From NCBI GenBank assembly GCA_000004695.1, contig CM000154.2:3040001-3104000 (forward strand): a DNA stretch of 64,000 nt, read 5' to 3'. This stretch comes from Dictyostelium discoideum. Its lineage: Eukaryota. Below, piece after piece: positions 21,365 to 49,627 of the stretch. The number at the start of each line of letters is the position of its first letter. Position 1 is the first letter of the stretch. The position numbers and the translations under genes are program-made. The notes under the pieces are model-generated. The model had not been told where the DNA came from. It did no database searches and was given only the letters and a program-made list of their open reading frames with translations.

Positions 21365-21438
21365 GGTCAGATGGTGTAGTCGGTTATCACGGTTGCTTTA
21401 CACGCAACAGGTCTCGAGTTCGATCCTCGGTCAGATCA
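21365..21438 (+). tRNA. tRNA-Val (anticodon UAC)
   Basis: It folds as a cloverleaf: acceptor GGTCAGA/TCAGATC (one A-A mismatch at 5-68), D arm GTGT-AGTCGGTTA-TCAC, anticodon arm GTTGC-TTTACAC-GCAAC (anticodon TAC), variable loop AGGTC, T arm TCGAG-TTCGATC-CTCGG, discriminator A. The D arm (GTGT/TCAC) and the ACAC after the anticodon match eukaryotic tRNA-Val. Confidence 0.75.
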
Positions 21439-29413: not shown

Positions 29414-30959
29414 TTACATTAATGGAACTTTTGAACGTTTCTTTTTATTTTCTTCCTCCTCTTCTTCTTTTTCTTTTTTTTTATCATTATTATGATTATC
29501 AACAACTTTTTTTTCTTTTTTATTTACCTTTTCTTCATATTGTTTATTACTACTATCTTTGAAAGGATCTTCATTTTCTTGATCATCTTCATCACCATCA
29601 TCATCTTCTTTGTCTATTTCACCATCATTTTGTTGTTGTTGTTGTTGTAATTTTACATTTTCATCATAACCATCATCTTCATCATCATTATTATCATCAT
29701 TCTGTAAATTATTTGTTTTAACAAAAGTTTGTTTACTTGGTGAAGTTGGATCTGGTACCATTGTTAATTCATAATCTTCTTGAAGTTGTGTTGAAGTTTC
29801 TAAATTACTCTCGATTGAATTTGATGATTTATCAATTGAACTTGGTAATGGAGGTGGTGAAATAATTGATGACAATGATTTTGTTGGTATTTGATCTTGG
29901 ATTGGATTTTGAGGTTTTAATTCTTTAATTTGTTGTTTAGATTGTTTTTTACTTTTTTTAACTTTTTTATTATTTTCATTTTTATTATTATTTATTGTTG
30001 CTGAAGAAGATGATGCTGATGATGATGATGCTTCATTATTCTCATTATTATTATTATTATTAATATTATTATCATTTAAAGTTGTAGTTGTAGTTGTAGT
30101 ATTATTTTTATTATTTTTATTTTTATTTATTGAAGATGATTCTAATTTTAATAAAGTTTTTTTAATTTTCTTTAATAATACTGGTGAATCTGGTTTATTT
30201 TTGAGTGAATCTTGATAAGATTCTAATGCTTCTTGATAACGACCTAAAAAGTAAAGTGAGTTACCTTTTGCATAACGTGGTAAATAACTATGATGACTAT
30301 CTCTATTTTCAATATCGATTGCTTTTTGAGCATCTTCCAATGCCTCTTGATAACGTTTCAATTTATTGAAACACATTGAACGATTTGAAAAGAGTATATT
30401 ATTTCGTTGATCGATTTCAATGGCCTCTGTGTATAATTCAATTGCTTCTTGATATTTTTTAGCATAATATGAATCATTGGCTAATCTAAATAGATTCTTT
30501 GCTTCCGTTGTTGAGAAATCAATTAAATCATCAATCATTTGTAACATTTCATCAAATTCTTGACATTGTTGAATCACAATTGCACTCTCAATACATGTTC
30601 TACTCTCTTTCAATTGATTTGCACCAAGATATGCTGATCCCATTCTAGCATATGCTTTCGATAGAATTGAATCAATCTCTTCAATTTCTTTTTTTCTTTT
30701 TTTCTTTTCTTTTATTTCTTCATCCCCATCACCATCTTCCTCTTCCTCTCCATCCTCCCCCTCTTCTTCCTCTTCTTTCTTAGATAATCCTTTTGATTTC
30801 TCTTTTCTAATTTTATTACCTTTTTCTAATGTAATTTTGCATTCTTTAATTGCATTTGAAAATAATCCTGATAAATTATAAACAGCTATTTTTTAAAATA
30901 AAAAAAAAAAAAAAAAAAGGAATGGGTTTTTATAGTTTTTTTTTAGAGGAAATGTCTCA

Positions 30960-34555: not shown

Positions 34556-37608
<3,053 letters not shown>

Positions 37609-37726
37609 ATTATTAAAAAAAAAAAAAAAAAAATTAACAAATAAAAAAATAAACTAACAAAAAAATTAAATAAAATTTATTTTAATAATTTTAAAACCAC
37701 CACCCCAAAAATGACAACATAATATT

Positions 37727-39189
37727 TTAATTTGAAATTTCTTTTGCTAAACCTTCGATGATTGATTTATATTCAATTTTTTCATAATTACATTCTGGTA
37801 CACCATTGAAACCATAGAGAGCACCCCACCAACAACAACCAATAGCACCAGTTGAATCATTATCACCACCATGAAGAACTGATCTTTTAATCATTTCTTC
37901 CCAATTATCAGCAGAACCTAATAAGGCATCATATGCTATAATACATGAATCATGACCTGATGAACCACCCCAACCACTAAATGAAATTGAATGATAGAAA
38001 TTCTCTCTAACTTTATAATCTGAATAATCTTTTGGGAAAACTGGATAATCGATACCCTTATCATTGGCTGCTTTTAATTCGTCTGGATTCGATGGAATTT
38101 GTCTTAATTTTAAATAAGATTTCCAAGAGTTCCAAAAATAATTCCAACCTTTTTCATAATTTTCAATGTTACGATTTGAACTATTTGAAGTTTTCTCTAA
38201 ATATTCTCTAGCTTTTGGCATTACCTCTGTCATTAATTTCAAAGGCCAGGTTTTTGGTGGAATTGATCTGATTGCATATGAGGCAAATAATGCTGATACT
38301 AATGCACCTAGAAAGCCAACTGGGTTATTATGTGTGATTCTACCACTTTCAATTGATAATTCAATTAATGTATCCAATTGTTCATCAGACCAATATTTAA
38401 ATCCAATACACATAGATCTCATTGATCCACCACAACCACCTGCTCTATCAGAGAAATCAATCTCATTCCATTGATAAACTTTGGATCTCATTCCAGTTTG
38501 TGTCATCAGTGATACTGAATTAATTGTTTGAATTCCTGGTGCTCTTCCTGCCATATCTTCCATTGAATGAATATATGCTTTTGCTAATTCTTTACATATT
38601 GATTCATTATCTGTATTGGTTGGTCTTGTTATTGCAATTGCTGTTGCAATATGCATAACTATTTTTTTTTTTTTTTTTTTTTTTTAATTAATTTTAACAA
38701 TTTTTAAAATAATATTTATTTATTTAAATTACATACTTGTATCATCTGATAATCTCCAATCTTTCTTATTTATTCTTTAATTTTTTTTCAAAAAAAAAAA
38801 AAAAATTATTATTATTATTCAAATAAAAATAAGAAATAAAATAAAATTAAAAAAAAAAAAAAGTACCTACTTTAGATTTTTATAACCACCAAGATATTCA
38901 TAGTGTTCATATATTCTTGATGGAGACTTTTCAAACTCCCAAATACCATTTTTATATCCACACTTTAAAAATAAAAAAAAATAAAAAAAAAATATTAGAA
39001 TTGATTATTTGTTTGAAAAATAAGAAAAATTGAAAAATTGAAAAATTGAAAAATTGAAAAATCAATACATACAGCATCACCAAATGCTGATAAAAGCATT
39101 GCTGGTTTAATGTTTTCTTTATTAATTGTGCCCATGATTGTTTGTGTAATCTTTTTATTTGTAAGTGTGCTAATAAATTTGTGAAACAT
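37727..39189 (-). CDS. ADP-ribosylarginine hydrolase, ARH1/ADPRH-type (ADP-ribosylglycohydrolase family); 4 exons: 39189..39073, 38962..38870, 38764..38737 (28-nt micro-exon), 38658..37727
   Basis: The spliced protein aligns with human ADPRH along its length: AFGDA-CGYKNGIWEF~AAGDALGYYNGKWEF; WRLSDDTIMHIATA~WRVSDDTVMHLATA; MEDMAGRAPG~MEDMDGRAPG; GGCGGSMRSMCIG~GGCGAAMRAMCIG; LDTLIELSIESGRITHNNPVGFLGAL~[82 protein letters not shown]~[56 protein letters not shown]. Minus-strand introns are 39072..38963 (110 nt, GTATGT..aaAG), 38869..38765 (105 nt, GTAGGT..taAG) and 38736..38659 (78 nt, GTATGT..atAG). Confidence 0.85.
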
Positions 39190-39349
39190 TGTTTTTTTTT
39201 TTTTTTTTTTTCAGAAAAAAAATCAAAAAAAAAAAAAAAAAAAAATTTCAAGCTTAATTTGAAATTTTGTGATATTTTGAGAAGTATCTATTTTAAGAAA
39301 TTCGTAATCAATTAGTCACAGTAATGACTCATTAATAATTTTTTTATTT

Positions 39350-39480
39350 TAATATTTTAACATTTTTTTAAAATAAAGCATAAAATTAATTAAAATTAAA
39401 AAAAATAAGAAATTAATTAAAATTAAAAAAATAAGAAATTAATAAAAATTAAAAAAATAAGAAATTAATTAAAATTAAAA
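39350..39480. repeat. about 31-bp tandem repeat (AATTAAAATTAAAAAAATAAGAAATTAATTA) x4
   Basis: Four near-identical tandem units. Confidence 0.8.
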
Positions 39481-39983
39481 TAATAAAAAATGAATCAATC
39501 AAATCAATATATTTGGTTTTTTATTTTATAAAATTTATTATTCCCTACTCATTATTGTTCAAAATAAAGAAACAATTACAAAAAATGAATAATAAACGAA
39601 TAATAAAATTTTAAAAATATTTGATTAATTGAAAAAAAAAAAAAAAGAACTGAATGACTACATTCATTTTTTTCTCTTTTATTTGCAAATGATGGATAGT
39701 TTCTTTTATTATTTGACTAATAAAAAATATTATTCAAAATTATGTGGTAATAAAAAATATTATTCACATTTACTAATTAAAAACTTTATTTTCAATTATA
39801 ATTTTAAGAAAATAAAATGACAAAGATTTATTTTATAACCTTTTTTTGCATCTAAAAAAGAAATTTTCCAAAGTTTGGACAAGAGATATTATAAAAATTT
39901 ATTTATCATTGTTTAATTACAACAATATTTTTTACCAACTACAATTTTACCGTAATTGCAATCCTTTTTATAATCTAAATTAT

Positions 39984-40248
39984 TAATTTCCAAAAAAAGT
40001 TCTATATGGAATTAGACATCCAGAAGACATACCCATGCATGTATAATCTTTACTTCCTATGATGAATTGAGTGCAACCATTTTCTTCAGCATTTGAACCT
40101 ACAGAGAAAAGAAATAAAGCAAATAAAATAGCAAATCCTATTAAACTTAATAACTTTAAATTTGGAATTAGTAAAAAAAAAAAAATCCAAAATTATTTAT
40201 TTAAACATATTACATGTTTAAATTCCAAAGGTTTTTACTAAATTCATT
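39984..40248 (-). CDS. candidate small secreted Cys-containing peptide, 59 aa (2 exons: 40248..40240, 40153..39984)
   Basis: ATG AAT TTA | GTAAAA..(86-nt intron)..tttaaAG | TTA TTA AGT.. gives MNL-LLSLIGFAILFALFLFSVGSNAEENGCTQFIIGSKDYTCMGMSSGCLIPYRTFFGN*. It has a clean signal peptide, 4 Cys, and local GC above background. Not on the ORF track because of the 3-codon first exon. Confidence 0.3.
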
Positions 40249-40751
40249 TTTTTTGAAACTTGTGTTTCTTTTTATTTGAATTTAGAATATAGAATTTCAA
40301 TTTTTATTTCTAAAATCTTTTTTTTAAACCACTTAAATATAAAAAAAATTGTATTTATTTAATTATTTAATTACAATTACAATTATAAGTAATATACAAA
40401 TATTAAAATTAATATGAGATTAAAAAATTTTTGTTGGTCATGTCCTATTTTTATTGGCTCAAGATATTGTTTTAACAGAACAATATTGCAGTTAAAAAAT
40501 TATTAATATTTCTAATAGTACTAAATAATAATTAATATTTTTAATTGTATTAAAAAATTATTAATATTTTTTAAAATAATTTACTTTTATTTGTCCAAAA
40601 ATCAAATGAAATTTCAAAATAAAAAATAAAAAAAAATATATATATATTTTAATTTGTTTATTTTATTTAAATTTAACAAAAAATTTTATTACTATTATTA
40701 TTATTATTATTATTATTATTCTTATTATTATAATTATTATTATTATTATTA

Positions 40752-40790
<39 letters not shown>

Positions 40791-41561
40791 TCACATGATT
40801 TTATTTTATTGATTTTTTTTACAAGATTGTTAATGTAATTAAAGATATAAAAAAAAAAAAACACCACCAACAGGAAAATTGTATATTTTTTTAATTATAG
40901 AAAACAAAAACTTTAAAAAAAAAAATTTTTTTACACGGGAAAAAAAAAAACCTTTTATTTACCCTAATAATTCCTATTGGATACAATTTTTTAGCCAAAT
41001 AGTTCCTATTGTATGTTTTTTTTTAAGTTATATTAAGTGTTGTAGGGAAATTTTTTAAAATTTCGCTGCCTTAACAGTAGTGAGTTTTCATACTAAATTT
41101 TTTTTTTTTTTTTTTTTCAATATTAAAAACAATTATTTTAGCCAAAACAATAAAAAAACTAATTTTAAACAGTTATTTGTAAGTTGTTATTTCTTTTAAA
41201 AATAAATAACAACTTACTTTCGAGTTTGTGACAATTTTTATTTTTTTTTTTATTTTTTTTTATTTAACCATAAACATAAAAAAAATGAAAAAGAGTTGTG
41301 TAACAATAAATATAAACTAATAATTTCATCTTCGTCTTCAAATAATAATAATAAATAATAATAATAATAATAATAAAAATAATAATATTAATAATAATAA
41401 TAATAATAATAATAACAATAGAGAAAAATTATCAACCATTTTCATCTTATAATAATAATAATAATAATTATAAAAATAATACAGGTGGTGCTGTTAGTAC
41501 TAACATTGTAAATAATATGGGTAAATGTGTTATTACTGGCCATCACTTTAGTGTATAAAAT

Positions 41562-42374
41562 ATGAATCATAATAATAATAACTATGATTTTGATAATAAA
41601 AATAATAGTATTGGTGGTGGTGGTGGTAGTAGTAGTAGAAGTAGTAGTAGTAGAAGTAGTAATAGAAGTAGTAGTGGAAGTAGTGGTGGCAGTGGTAGTA
41701 ACAGTAGCAGTAGTATAAATAATATTATTAATAGTGATAAAGACTTTATAACAGAAAGAAAACAAACAAAATCTCCACCTTTAACTCTTCCAAATATTAA
41801 AACCACCACCACAACAACTACCACAACAACAACTACCACAACCACAACAACAAAAAATGAAAATATAAGTTCATCTGAATCTGAAAACTCCTCTAGCAGA
41901 GTTGAATCCCCAAATTGTAATAAAAAGGTTAAGAAAACCAAAACCATTACTATCAGTCCAACTGGTTATAATATCAATAGTAAAGATGACATTAATAAAT
42001 TTACTACCTATGGCTACACTAACGAAAAGAGCAATGCCAGAAGAGACCCAAAATGGATAACTGATATTATTGAAAGATATAATCGTTTAAAATCTGAAAG
42101 CCCTAATAATAATTATAATGGCAGTAGTAATAATAATAATAATATTAATAATATTAATAACAATAGTAATAATACTACGTCACCTTGTCAATCACCATCA
42201 TCAAATACAGCAACTATAACATCAATATCATCACCTACTTCATCATCCTCATCTTTATCATCCCCATCCCCATCATTTAGTATAAATAACATTGTTAATC
42301 AAGATGTTGATGGTTGTGATAGAATGAATTATACTTTACTTTCGCAAAATAATAATAATAATAATAATAATAAT

Positions 42375-42427
<53 letters not shown>

Positions 42428-42929
42428 GAATACAAATAATAATGGTGATGAATGTATTGTTAAACCAATTTCATTAATTCAAAATAAAAAAAGCGGTCAA
42501 AGAAGTCTTAAAACCAAAGAACATAAAGAGATACTTGAAGCATTATATAGAGTAACCTTGTATCCAACATCAGAGGAAACTAAAATCATTAGCCAAATTT
42601 TGGGTATGACATTTGGTCAAGTTAAAAGCTCCTTCCGTCATCGTAGAGAGAAATTATCAAAGTCTGGTTTGTTCTCTTACGCAAAAAATCTTAAAAATTG
42701 TGGAAAATGCACAGTACCTTTGGATAATTTCTTTGAAAATTGTAAATACTTAACTACTAAAGAAACTGAAGAGTTTGCTGCTGCATATGATGTATCTTTT
42801 GAACAAATCAAAAATTATTTTAAAGGAAAAAGAGCAATATTAAATAAGTTATCTTCAAAGGCGAATCAAGATAATGATAATAATAATAATAATGAAAATA
42901 ATGATGATAGCTATAGTGATGAAGGGTGA
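41562..42929 (+). CDS. homeobox-containing protein
   Basis: N-terminal poly-N, G/S-runs and a T18 run. C-terminal atypical homeodomain RSLKTKEHKEILEALYRVTLYPTSEETKIISQILGMTFGQVKSSFRHRREK, with helix 3 (QVKSSFRHRR) matching the WFQNRR pattern. A second, degenerate homeodomain-like segment follows (TKETEEFAAAYDVSFEQIKNYFKGKRA). Confidence 0.5.
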
Positions 42930-45618: not shown

Positions 45619-45820
45619 ATGGACATAAATAATAATATTGACAATATTACAAATAGTAATAATAATATTGAAAAAAATAATAATATTAATAATTTTGATA
45701 ATAATAATAATAATAATAATATTTTATATATTAGTAGTAGTGAGAGCAATAATAATAATAATATTAATAGTAGTAATAGTAGTAGTAATAATACTAACAA
45801 TAGTAATAATAGTAGTATTA

Positions 45821-45868
<48 letters not shown>

Positions 45869-46718
45869 TTTCCATAGAAGGTAATACAGCTAATAATAGT
45901 GATATAAAAGTTGGAACAAGTTTAACGAATTCAATTAAAAGCTTTAAGAAACTATTTAATAATCAAAAGAGTAATAATAATAACAATAATCTTCAAGTTA
46001 ATCATTTTCAACAATCACAATCATTACCACCATCATCAAATACTTCGCCTACATTTTCATCAACATCACCAATTATAATCGTATCGGATAATACAAATAT
46101 TGAATCTTTAGATTTAGAAATAAATAGTAATAATAGTGGTAGTATTGGTAGTAATAATAGTGGTGATAATAATAATATAAATATGAATTATAAATCAAAA
46201 TCCCTATCATTAAATTATTCAATTTTAAGACCTTTATGTGATACTGATAATATTAGTAATAACAATAATAATAATAATAATAATAGTAATAATAGTAATA
46301 ACAACAACAACATGTCATCCTCTGATAATAATAATAATAGTAATAGTAATAATACTACAAATGGTGGTCAACTAAAAAGAAATAATAGTAGTAATAATAA
46401 TAATAGATATAGTATTGGTGGGCCATTAAAAATGTCAAATTCATCAGATTTTAATGATTATTTATTAAATAATAATATTTTATATAATATTAATCAACCT
46501 AATCGTAAAACACCACCACCAAATTTAATGTCAGTTTTAAAGAATAGTTTCACACAATATACACCACCTTCAACAACACTCACATCACCAACAAGTACAC
46601 GTAATCCAAATAGATTATCAACAAATTTATCAAATGTAACAAATATATCCTCTTCAACATCATCATCTTCTTCATCTTTAAATGCTAATAATAATACTAA
46701 TAATAATAATCAACAATT

Positions 46719-46753
<35 letters not shown>

Positions 46754-47076
46754 TACAGCAACAACAACAATTAACAAAATCATACTCTGTTAGTAATTTA
46801 ATGAGATCACAATCATCATCATCATCTTCACAATCACCATTAATTCAACAAAGTGATCAAGTTACATTTGATTATGATTATATTTATAGAAGGTTCCTTA
46901 GAAGTAGAAGTGAATTGACATTACCATCATGGGACAATGCACAATATGAAGGTGATTTCGATACTGAAATCCAAGATACTCTAACTAGAGCTTTATCAAA
47001 TGGTAATTTACCAAGTGATAATAAAAGACAAAGTTTACATTTATCAACTGAATCAACTACAAGTAATAATAATAAC

Positions 47077-47108
<32 letters not shown>

Positions 47109-49627
47109 TAATAATAATAATAAATCAAAAACTGATGATACAACAAATTCTGCTACAACTACAACAACAACCACTACAACTACAACAACAACAACTACAA
47201 CCAATTCAACAACAACAACAACACAATTAAATAATGGTAAAAATTTAATTGGATTAGTTTATAATGATAAAGATGAAGTTATTGCAGGTGAAAGAGATAA
47301 AATTATTGGATTATTTACAGATATTTCAAAAGTGACAGGTACACAATTTTTAGAGGAATTTTTATTTACATATCATTATTATATGACATCAGTTGATTTA
47401 TTAGAGAATTTAAAGGGTAGATTTAATAATCCATTAATGGATCAAGCAGCACAATCAATATCAATACTTGAAGAGAATCATGACAAAGTAAAGATTGAGC
47501 AGCTTTCAACACATATTAGACTTCGTGTTATTAATGTAATAAAGAAATGGATTGAAAATCATGGTTATGCATTCGCAACCGATATTAACCTGTATCAAAT
47601 GTTGGTGGACTTTATAGATGGTGATGTGATGTCGTTCAGTCAAAGATGGGGCCAATATTTGAAAAAGGCAATCAATGATAGTGGCTGTCTATTACGATAT
47701 ATAGCTGTCAATGTAAAAGAAGCATCCTCCAAACAATTGCGTGAAATCATCTCATTGGATAATTTAGATGCAATCTCAAAATTAATGTCACAATCATTAC
47801 AATTGAAAGAACGTAAAAAAGGTTTAAAAGTTATTAAAAATTCATTCACAGGTAATGAAGCTGTAGAATGGTTAATTAATAAATTCAATTTAGATTCAAA
47901 AGATGAAGCACTTGAAACTTTATCAAAAATGTTACAATCAAATTTAATTTTTCATCATTCAAAATCTGGTTCTTCATTTTCTCCATCCTCCTCCTCCTCC
48001 TCAACAACAACAACGACAACAACATCATCATCATCATCGAGTTCGAATACAACAACTGCAAATATGGCATCATCATCTTCTGCAACCGATAATAGCAGCA
48101 GTGGTGGTGTTGTAACTTCTTCATCATCTTCTTCATCATCATCATCTTCTTCACCATCAAATGGAAATGGTACAACAGCTATAACGAGTACAAGTTTACC
48201 AAATTCTATATCATCATCAAATTCAACATCAATTTTAACATCATTAGTTGTAAATAGTAATAGTAGTGGAATTGCTAATGGTTCCTCAACTCCATCAATA
48301 CCATCATCTGTAACATCACCTTTAACAAATTCAAAATCGACTTTAAATTCTACCCCTTCATCATCATCAAATTCTTTTACTTTTAAAGATAAATCAACAA
48401 GTATCTATTATTTTATATTTGAAAATATTAATTTTCCAGAACCAATTGTACCAAAAACATTTTTTTCATCACCAAATTCAACATTTTCAATTACATTTTT
48501 AGATATTCATCCAGTTGAAATCGCTAGACAATTGACATTAATTGATTATGAGTTATTTAAAAAATTATCACCAACTGATTTCTATCATACAGCATGGAGT
48601 AAACCAGATGCAAAAGAGAAAGTACCAAATTTAATCAATTTTATCAATAGATCCAATACCGTTAGTTATTGGGTTGCCACAGAGATTTTATCATCTTCAA
48701 ATATAAAACATCGTGTTTCAGTTTTAAAAAGATTCATCACTATCGCTGAAATCCTTAGAAAATTTCATAATTGGAATACTCTCACTGGTATTTTAATGGG
48801 TTTAAATTTAGGTTCAATTCAACGTTTAAAGAAAACTTGGGAATCTATTGATAAGAAACAATTGGATTCACTTCAAAATTTAATTAATCTAACAAGTGAA
48901 CGTTTAAATTATTCAAATTATCGTAAAGAAATGTCAACTCCAACTTATCCTTGTTTACCTTTTATGGCTGTATATTTAAAAGATTTATATTTTATTGAAG
49001 AAAATCCTGATTATTTAGAAAATGGTTATATTAATTTTGAAAAAGTAAAAAATTATTATTATTATTATTAAATTTATTTAATTTTTATTTAATTTATTTA
49101 ATTTATTAACTTTTTTATTTTATTTTTTTTTTATTTTTTTTTACTTTTTATTTTAGATGAAAATGATTTCTAAAGTTTTAATTGAAATTAAAAGATATCA
49201 AACTGAACAATATTGGTTAAAGAAAATAGATGCAATTGAAAATATATTGAAATCAGTTGTTTTAACTGATAAAGATTTATATAAAGCTTCACATATGATT
49301 GAACAACCTCAAAGAACAATGACTGTTGGTTCAAATTTAAAAGCTCAATCATTTTTAACAACAACAACAACAACTACCACTACAAATAATTTAAATAATA
49401 ATAATAATAATAATAATCCAAATAATAATAATAATAATAATAATAATAGCGCTAATAATAAATCTTCACCATCTCCATCACCCTCCTCCTCTCCAATTAC
49501 TTCATCACCAATATCATCATTAACAATTAACAACAACAATACGATTTCATCAAATTTATCAGCTTCAACTGATAGTAGTATAAATACAAAAAAGAAATCT
49601 TCTTTCTTAATGTTTGGAAAGAAATAA
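45619..49627 (+). CDS. Ras guanine-nucleotide exchange factor with DEP domain (RasGEF_N - DEP - CDC25-homology); 2 exons: 45619..49044, 49157..49627
   Basis: RasGEF_N (IIGLFTDISKVTGTQFLEEFLFTYHYYMTSVDLLENLKGRF..), DEP (KVIKNSFTGNEAVEWLINKFNLDSKDEALETLSKMLQSNLIFH), and the catalytic domain (HPVEIARQLTLIDYELFKKLSPTDF..NFINRSNTVSYWVATEIL..NWNTLTGILMGLNLGSIQRLKKTW..PCLPFMAVYLKDLYFIEENPD..INFEK|MKMISKVLIEIKRYQ). Intron GTAAAA (49045) to tttTAG (49156), 112 nt. The product of about 1300 aa has extensive poly-N/S/T. The architecture matches what is described for the DEP-containing Dictyostelium RasGEF (GefQ), but identity cannot be verified here. Confidence 0.8.

Follow-up and report, generated by a model that had tools for sequence, protein, structure and literature searches.

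The window analysed here is a 64,000 nt stretch of the Dictyostelium discoideum genome (GCA_000004695.1, contig CM000154.2, positions 3,040,001 to 3,104,000), and all positions below are those of the window. Its minus strand very probably carries the single-copy gene ADPRH_DICDI, encoding an ARH1-type ADP-ribosyl-acceptor hydrolase and spliced from four exons of 117, 92, 38 and 932 nt, with three short and extremely AT-rich introns between them. The gene runs from an ATG at 39189 to a stop at 37727, and its 392-amino-acid product, translated with a third exon of 38 nt, is identical at every residue to Q54H71 / XP_636047.1 / EAL62549.1, the AX4 'ADP-ribosylarginine hydrolase'. The gene model is already known, and the existing AX4 annotation has both the right model and the right name.

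Gene structure and the micro-exon boundary

The six-frame list of open reading frames (ORFs) contains a single long ORF at the locus (37727..38656, 309 amino acids), corresponding to the last exon, with only short fragments upstream. This agrees with an earlier reading of the DNA without database searches (hereafter the sequence-only reading), which had proposed a minus-strand gene of four exons with only the last on the ORF list. Exon 1 (39073..39189, 117 nt; MFHKFISTLTNKKITQTIMGTINKENIKPAMLLSAFGDA) begins with the ATG at 39189..39187, encodes residues 1-39 and is followed by a GTATGT donor at 39072. Intron 1 (38963..39072, 110 nt, GT..AG, 12% GC) leads to exon 2 (38871..38962, 92 nt; CGYKNGIWEFEKSPSRIYEHYEYLGGYKNLK), which encodes residues 40 to 70 (in part), including the predicted catalytic Glu48. 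Intron 2 (38775..38870, 96 nt, GTAGGT..TTAAAG, 8% GC, phase 2) and intron 3 (38659..38736, 78 nt, GTATGT..AAATAG, 5% GC, phase 1) enclose exon 3, the micro-exon (38737..38774, 38 nt; AATAAATAAGAAAGATTGGAGATTATCAGATGATACAA), which encodes (K70)INKKDWRLSDDT(I83). Exon 4 (37727..38658, 932 nt including the TAA stop at 37729..37727) encodes residues 83 (in part) to 392 and carries A122, G124, C158, G159, H192, the adenosine-binding loop S308-G317 and D348-N-D350-S351. The exons have a GC content of 24-33% vs 5-12% for the introns. All three introns are GT-AG, and retention of any one of them gives an early stop. Skipping the micro-exon shifts the frame and produces a stop after 86 residues, in line with the earlier statement that this small exon is easily missed and that a model lacking it would be frameshifted. 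Intron 1 also holds an 8 nt tandem repeat, (TTGAAAAA)x6, at 39013..39062.

The splice junctions were set by a spliced transcript, L002, a 1,210 nt Logan contig from public run SRR24091727 with an uninterrupted ORF of 374 codons. Its core (1,164 nt after trimming of Illumina adapters) was 100% identical to the joined segments 39152..39073, 38962..38871, 38774..38737 and 38658..37705, giving junctions at 39073/38962, 38871/38774 and 38737/38658; the last segment includes part of the 3' untranslated region (37705..37726). The 38 nt exon matched transcript positions 197-234 exactly, and its placement was unique. The outer two junctions are exactly those of the sequence-only reading. The middle one is not: that reading had joined 38870 to 38764, giving a micro-exon of 28 nt, and so misplaced the 5' boundary of this exon by 10 nt and the donor of exon 2 by 1 nt. 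Strings spanning 38870/38764 and 38871/38764 were absent from L002, while the string spanning 38871/38774 was present. Illumina TruSeq adapter was found at both ends of the contig (positions 1-24 and 1189-1210) with no poly(A), and its ends (window positions 39152 and 37705) may represent over-represented fragment ends and not true mRNA ends.

Enumeration of canonical, in-frame and stop-free GT-AG solutions for intron 2 gave four options, in which exon 3 measures 24 nt (with two alternative donors), 38 nt or 17 nt. Only the 38 nt option agrees with both the RNA and the orthologs; it uses an acceptor AG at 38776/38775, 10 nt upstream of the start of the 28 nt exon, and yields the in-frame exon 38774..38737. 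The 28 nt model as proposed (exon 2 ending at 38870, micro-exon 38764..38737, protein of 389 amino acids) is in frame, free of stops, has an AG just before 38764 and retains KDWRLSDDT, but it needs a TA donor, its junction is replaced in the transcript by 38871/38774 and it codes for three residues fewer than all orthologs at the same place. Neither its 389- and 371-amino-acid products nor the bare 309-amino-acid ORF was present in a collection of ~15 billion proteins, which does contain the 392- and 374-amino-acid products of the 38 nt model; the 28 nt model was rejected as having next to no probability. Pairing the 28 nt exon with the true GT donor at 38870/38869 (exon 2 ending at 38871) causes a frameshift and was rejected as well. 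Every dictyostelid ortholog has the pattern K/E/V-(I/V)-(N/D)-x-x-x-W-R-(L/V)-SDDT, which extends three residues beyond the coding capacity of the 28 nt exon, and the additional residues I-N-K of the 38 nt exon have counterparts in every one of these orthologs. The micro-exon is 38774..38737 and exon 2 ends at 38871, with database identity, RNA and orthologs as three independent lines in agreement. The false acceptor was likely chosen 10 nt too far downstream because the real exon opens with 10 nt, AATAAATAAG, that are AT-rich, resemble intron sequence and end in AG. Micro-exons are commonly defined as exons of at most 51 nt, and this internal coding exon of 38 nt, RNA-supported and with GT-AG introns on both sides, falls within that limit.

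Intron conservation among dictyostelids

To compare intron positions, each annotated protein was threaded onto its locus in the genome, and only placements with exact translation and GT-AG introns were accepted. All six species compared (D. discoideum, D. firmibasis, D. purpureum, P. violaceum, Cavenderia fasciculata and Heterostelium album) have the phase-2 intron that precedes the micro-exon. The 38 nt exon itself was present in three of the six, D. discoideum, D. firmibasis and Polysphondylium violaceum; in D. purpureum, C. fasciculata and H. album it is fused with the downstream exon. An ancient origin of the flanking introns was considered and rejected, as the nearest introns in the starfish Asterias rubens lie ~8 nt and 8 codons away and are not at the same positions. 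With this single animal as the comparison, the micro-exon architecture looks dictyostelid-specific.

Fold and predicted active site

The full product matched the Pfam family ADP_ribosyl_GH (PF03747) with 195.2 bits (cut-off 26.2, E = 2.5e-57) over profile positions 2-286 of 287. The last exon alone matched positions 54-286 with 159.5 bits. The extension of the match comes with the joining of the upstream exons, which restores the motifs GDA/CGYKNGIWEF and WRLSDDT as had been proposed from the letters alone; the SDDT motif (Mg2+-binding/catalytic) is coded by the micro-exon and the catalytic Glu by exon 2. These small exons are thus predicted to supply the catalytic N-terminal part of the enzyme. 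Among sequences with solved structures, three human ARH1 chains matched end to end (query 24-389) with 323-324 bits (E ~1e-95), vs at most 28 bits for ARH3; identity to ARH3 structures is 16-19%. The claims of an end-to-end match to ARH1 and of an ARH1-like and not ARH3-like signature (324 vs 28 bits) both stood.

AlphaFold, run on an alignment of 44 sequences (A1), gave a model with a mean predicted local distance difference test (pLDDT) score of 93.9 and a predicted template modelling score (pTM) of 0.92, with low confidence at residues 1-20 only. Compared with human ARH1 (6iux, 3hfw, 6g28, 6g2a), the model gave target-normalised template modelling (TM) scores of 0.90-0.92 and a root mean square deviation (rmsd) of 2.1-2.5 A (0.91-0.92 and 2.1-2.4 A for the first three), and compared with ARH3 structures TM scores of 0.66-0.73 (~0.7, against 0.92 for ARH1) and an rmsd >5 A. 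The best 50 PDB matches of the model were all ARH-family structures. The model predicts the all-helical ADP-ribosylglycohydrolase fold, and sequence and model together point to an ARH1-type, not ARH3-type, ADP-ribosylhydrolase.

In human ARH1, two Mg2+ are bound by 54-SDDT-57 and 302-DSDS-305, the pyrophosphate is held by Gly130 and His163, the distal ribose is touched by Ala98, Gly100 and Asp302, and a rigid loop, Ser262-Gly271, binds adenosine with Tyr263 stacking on the adenine (PMC9738213, PMC6309922, PMC7050489). Glu25 is crucial to full activity and Cys129 stands in place of the Asn of ARH3 (PMC6309922), and the mutation D56N inactivates the enzyme (PMC7050489). In the window protein, E48, S79, D80, D81, T82, A122, G124, C158, G159, H192, S316, D348, D350 and S351 are conserved; E48 corresponds to human Glu25 and C158 to the ARH1-specific Cys129. 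The loop 308-317 is of the ARH1 adenosine-binding type, with the conservative change of human Y263 to F309. The SDDT and DxDS motifs were kept in all seven aligned amoebozoan sequences, with the exception of Physarum (SDDQ).

Relation to ARH1 and ARH2

The search for ARH2 (ADPRHL1), a family member without a solved structure, was seeded with a human ARH2 sequence, which was 99% identical to a gibbon ARH2 from the database (P0127); only the named sequences returned were used. The ARH2 matches listed (at least 120) were all from jawed vertebrates. In a bootstrapped neighbour-joining tree (347 columns, 200 replicates), ARH2 formed a long-branched clade with 100% support among the animal sequences, and vertebrate ARH1 formed a clade with 98% support, with one fish sequence (Fundulus) outside it. 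The dictyostelids formed a 100% clade outside the animals, with weak support at the deep nodes (9-58%). Sequence identity of the window protein to human ARH1 is 47.6%, vs 38.8% to ARH2. The protein has none of the ARH2 states SDNT, GESAAT, SSEGRGGRRG, C129F and G100D, and amoebozoan and invertebrate sequences hold ARH1 states at the positions degraded in ARH2. The designation as an ortholog of vertebrate ADPRH needs qualifying: the active ARH1 site is kept, but the lineage appears to branch before the duplication that gave rise to ARH1 and ARH2, and on these comparisons the protein is best read as a pre-duplication co-ortholog of ARH1 and ARH2 with the active ARH1 site retained.

Predicted activity and substrates

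By homology with human ARH1, the enzyme would cleave the N-glycosidic bond of alpha-ADP-ribosyl-arginine, protein-bound or free, in an Mg2+-dependent reaction, yielding ADP-ribose and unmodified arginine. The active site, holding two Mg2+, would be formed by Glu48 from exon 2, Ser79-Asp80-Asp81-Thr82 from the micro-exon and Asp348, Asp350 and Ser351 from exon 4. Its substrates could come from a transferase of the amoeba itself or from bacterial effectors that ADP-ribosylate arginine. The sequence-only reading had gone further, taking the ARH1-like signature to imply a cycle of arginine-specific mono-ADP-ribosylation in this organism. This is not supported as stated: in the literature searched, no Dictyostelium arginine-specific transferase (ARTC) was found, only coincidental co-mentions, and an eraser does not demonstrate a writer, so that the case for an endogenous cycle of arginine ADP-ribosylation is not made. 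An outside source of arginine-ADP-ribose in amoeba host biology is documented in the form of bacterial effectors (PMC7949102, PMC8820735). In vitro, the Legionella effector Lart1 modifies a conserved arginine of D. discoideum Glud2 (PMC7949102), and Ceg3 modifies Arg236 of ADP/ATP carriers (PMC8820735). Mammalian ARH1 protects against cholera toxin (PMC7050489).

Two other readings of the protein were weighed against that of an active arginine hydrolase. A catalytically dead pseudoenzyme like vertebrate ARH2 is suggested by the position of the window protein, which is about equally distant from the two sides of the ARH1/ARH2 split and appears to branch before it, but the residues degraded in ARH2 are intact here (SDDT vs SDNT, GDNDST vs GESAAT, the adenosine loop, C158 and G124) and the higher identity is to human ARH1, which makes loss of catalysis very improbable. 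The other reading keeps the protein active but takes its main substrates to be other than arginine-linked, namely serine-ADP-ribose, O-acetyl-ADP-ribose, alpha-NAD+ or poly(ADP-ribose), with the enzyme covering for a missing ARH3. D. discoideum is listed without ARH3 by Perina et al. 2014 (PMC4245714), which would leave room for a wider substrate range; human ARH1 also cuts O-acetyl-ADP-ribose and alpha-NAD+ (PMC9738213), and two peripheral adenosine contacts are changed in the window protein. The ARH1-specific adenosine-binding loop, the Cys that stands where ARH3 has Asn, and the Glu-bearing helix are kept, however, and the modelled structure fits ARH1 far better than ARH3, so that a mainly non-arginine activity appears unlikely.

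Several points weigh against the identification of the locus as a gene of this structure for an arginine-directed ARH1-type hydrolase. Evidence from RNA comes from a single assembled contig of a single run, and the true start codon could be at 39189 or at 39135, both being possible. The changed adenosine contacts are human S124, which is D153 here, and the water-bridged T167, which is V196. In the ARH family, substrate preference is partly set by surface features beyond the active site (PMC6309922), and because of this the arginine specificity is one that we infer. No assay of the Dictyostelium enzyme was found in the literature searched. Animal ARH1 sequences vary at human position 124 too (K in Xenopus, N in Asterias), so that these contacts do not define the family.

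For an active ARH1-type enzyme, a speculative and rather unlikely extension is that it mainly counters effectors with which intracellular bacteria ADP-ribosylate arginine, such as Legionella Lart1 acting on Glud2 and Ceg3 acting on ADP/ATP carriers, or that it also replaces the missing ARH3, with the N-terminal extension and second ATG perhaps yielding two isoforms that differ in localisation or regulation. The locus has little significance beyond annotation hygiene, as the reference genome already has the correct model and name. It is a tidy case of a 38 nt exon coding half of a catalytic metal site that ORF scanning does not see. D. discoideum is also a handy genetic system for the role of ARH1 outside animals, because it combines an intact ARH1-type site with a reported lack of ARH3 and is naturally host to Legionella effectors that ADP-ribosylate arginine; this is an opportunity and not a discovery.

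Translation start and N-terminal extension

The annotated ATG at 39189 comes after a poly-A run and is followed, 54 nt downstream, by a second in-frame ATG (Met19, 39133..39135, minus strand), which starts a form of 374 amino acids. This shorter form is identical to KAM9947824.1, is present in the Logan transcript and is the one given in more recent NCBI annotations of further D. discoideum isolates. The extension between the two ATGs (39136..39189, 17-18 codons) forms an open, in-frame stretch of similar sequence in five Dictyostelium species (MFHKFISTLTNKKITQTI, MIRKFINTFTNKNITQTI, MFHKFINTFTKRNTIQAI, MLKFINTFANRNITQRI and, in D. purpureum, MFFSKLFNKNYIKNM). It shows one indel, which is in frame, and five of the six species pairs have substitutions biased to third codon positions. 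Counter to a coding extension, stops are also absent from 26% of random 54 nt windows of the intergenic DNA upstream. The 5' end of L002, at 39152, lies downstream of the first ATG, but it abuts the adapter and need not be a true 5' end. The extension is missing in Polysphondylium, Acytostelium, Cavenderia and Heterostelium, while D. citrinum and some D. discoideum isolates have it without an annotation (loci L003, L008, L009 and L010 compared).

The extension is basic, lacks acidic residues through position 25 and has pLDDT values of 44-53. Its helical hydrophobic moment was 0.44 vs a shuffled mean of 0.67, and 73% of the shuffles reached 0.44. A reading of the extension as a mitochondrial presequence is not supported by these sequence and model properties.

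Neighbouring genes and other features of the window

The window is very AT-rich with long poly-Asn ORFs, in keeping with a dictyostelid genome, and the 7 kb around the gene are 100% identical to CM142511.1 of GCA_054883475.1. The neighbouring genes checked had no functional link to the ARH1 gene. A poly-Asn protein (35038..37608, plus strand, ORF of 856 amino acids) is convergent with it, the two stop codons lying 118 nt apart. This ORF contains poly-Asn and Asp/Lys-rich tracts of great length, plus an Agenet match near the C-terminus that stays below threshold (23.1 bits, cut-off 27), and in GCA_054883475.1 it is annotated within a protein of at least 992 amino acids. Upstream, a homeodomain protein (41562..42929, plus strand) is divergent at a distance of 2.4 kb. 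Other ORFs of the neighbourhood encode a TPR-repeat protein (29414..30643, minus strand) and a RasGEF with RasGEF_N and DEP domains (45619..49071, plus strand).

The intergenic region between the ARH1 and homeodomain genes (39190..41561) is unusually long (~2.4 kb), and its GC content rises to 28-35% around 39950..40150; no gene is called in this region in GCA_054883475.1. In D. firmibasis, a gene call of 49 amino acids lies upstream of its own ARH1. A 26 nt tandem repeat (AAATTAATTAAAATTAAAAAAATAAG, 4.3 copies, 93% matches) was found at 39383..39495, ~200-300 nt upstream of the start codon. A tRNA-Val(UAC) gene (21365..21438, plus strand) was detected by ARAGORN and matched Rfam RF00005 with 54 bits (gathering score 29) in a search of 201 nt. 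A scan of the whole window against Rfam at the gathering threshold gave no match at all, this tRNA included, and therefore speed filters can miss a genuine tRNA in an AT-rich window. In an isolate labelled D. discoideum, ACTFIR (P0001 / L010, GCA_054859385.1), the ARH1 protein was 96% identical to the AX4 and window protein and had a C-terminal extension of four residues, QSNN, a notable divergence within one named species. No entry for P0122 or P0057 was found in the contig index.

Comparison with known ARH proteins

With human ARH1/ADPRH (3HFW, 6G28, 6IUX) the window protein is predicted to share the fold (TM 0.92, rmsd ~2.2 A) at 44-48% identity end to end; the Mg2+-binding and catalytic residues, the counterparts of Cys129, Gly130 and His163 and the adenosine-binding loop are all kept. 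It differs from human ARH1 in an N-terminal extension of 18-23 residues modelled with low confidence, in an insertion of ~11 residues around 270-285 and in having F, D and V at the positions of Y263, S124 and T167. The Dictyostelium lineage also appears to split off before the ARH1/ARH2 duplication. With vertebrate ARH2/ADPRHL1 the window protein shares the fold family and a pre-duplication ancestor, but ARH2 has lost the SDDT motif, the DxDS motif and the adenosine loop, whereas the window protein retains all three. ARH3/ADPRS, also a member of the PF03747 superfamily, likewise has a binuclear Mg2+ site; it has TDDT/DTDT and an Asn where the window protein has SDDT, DNDS and Cys158.

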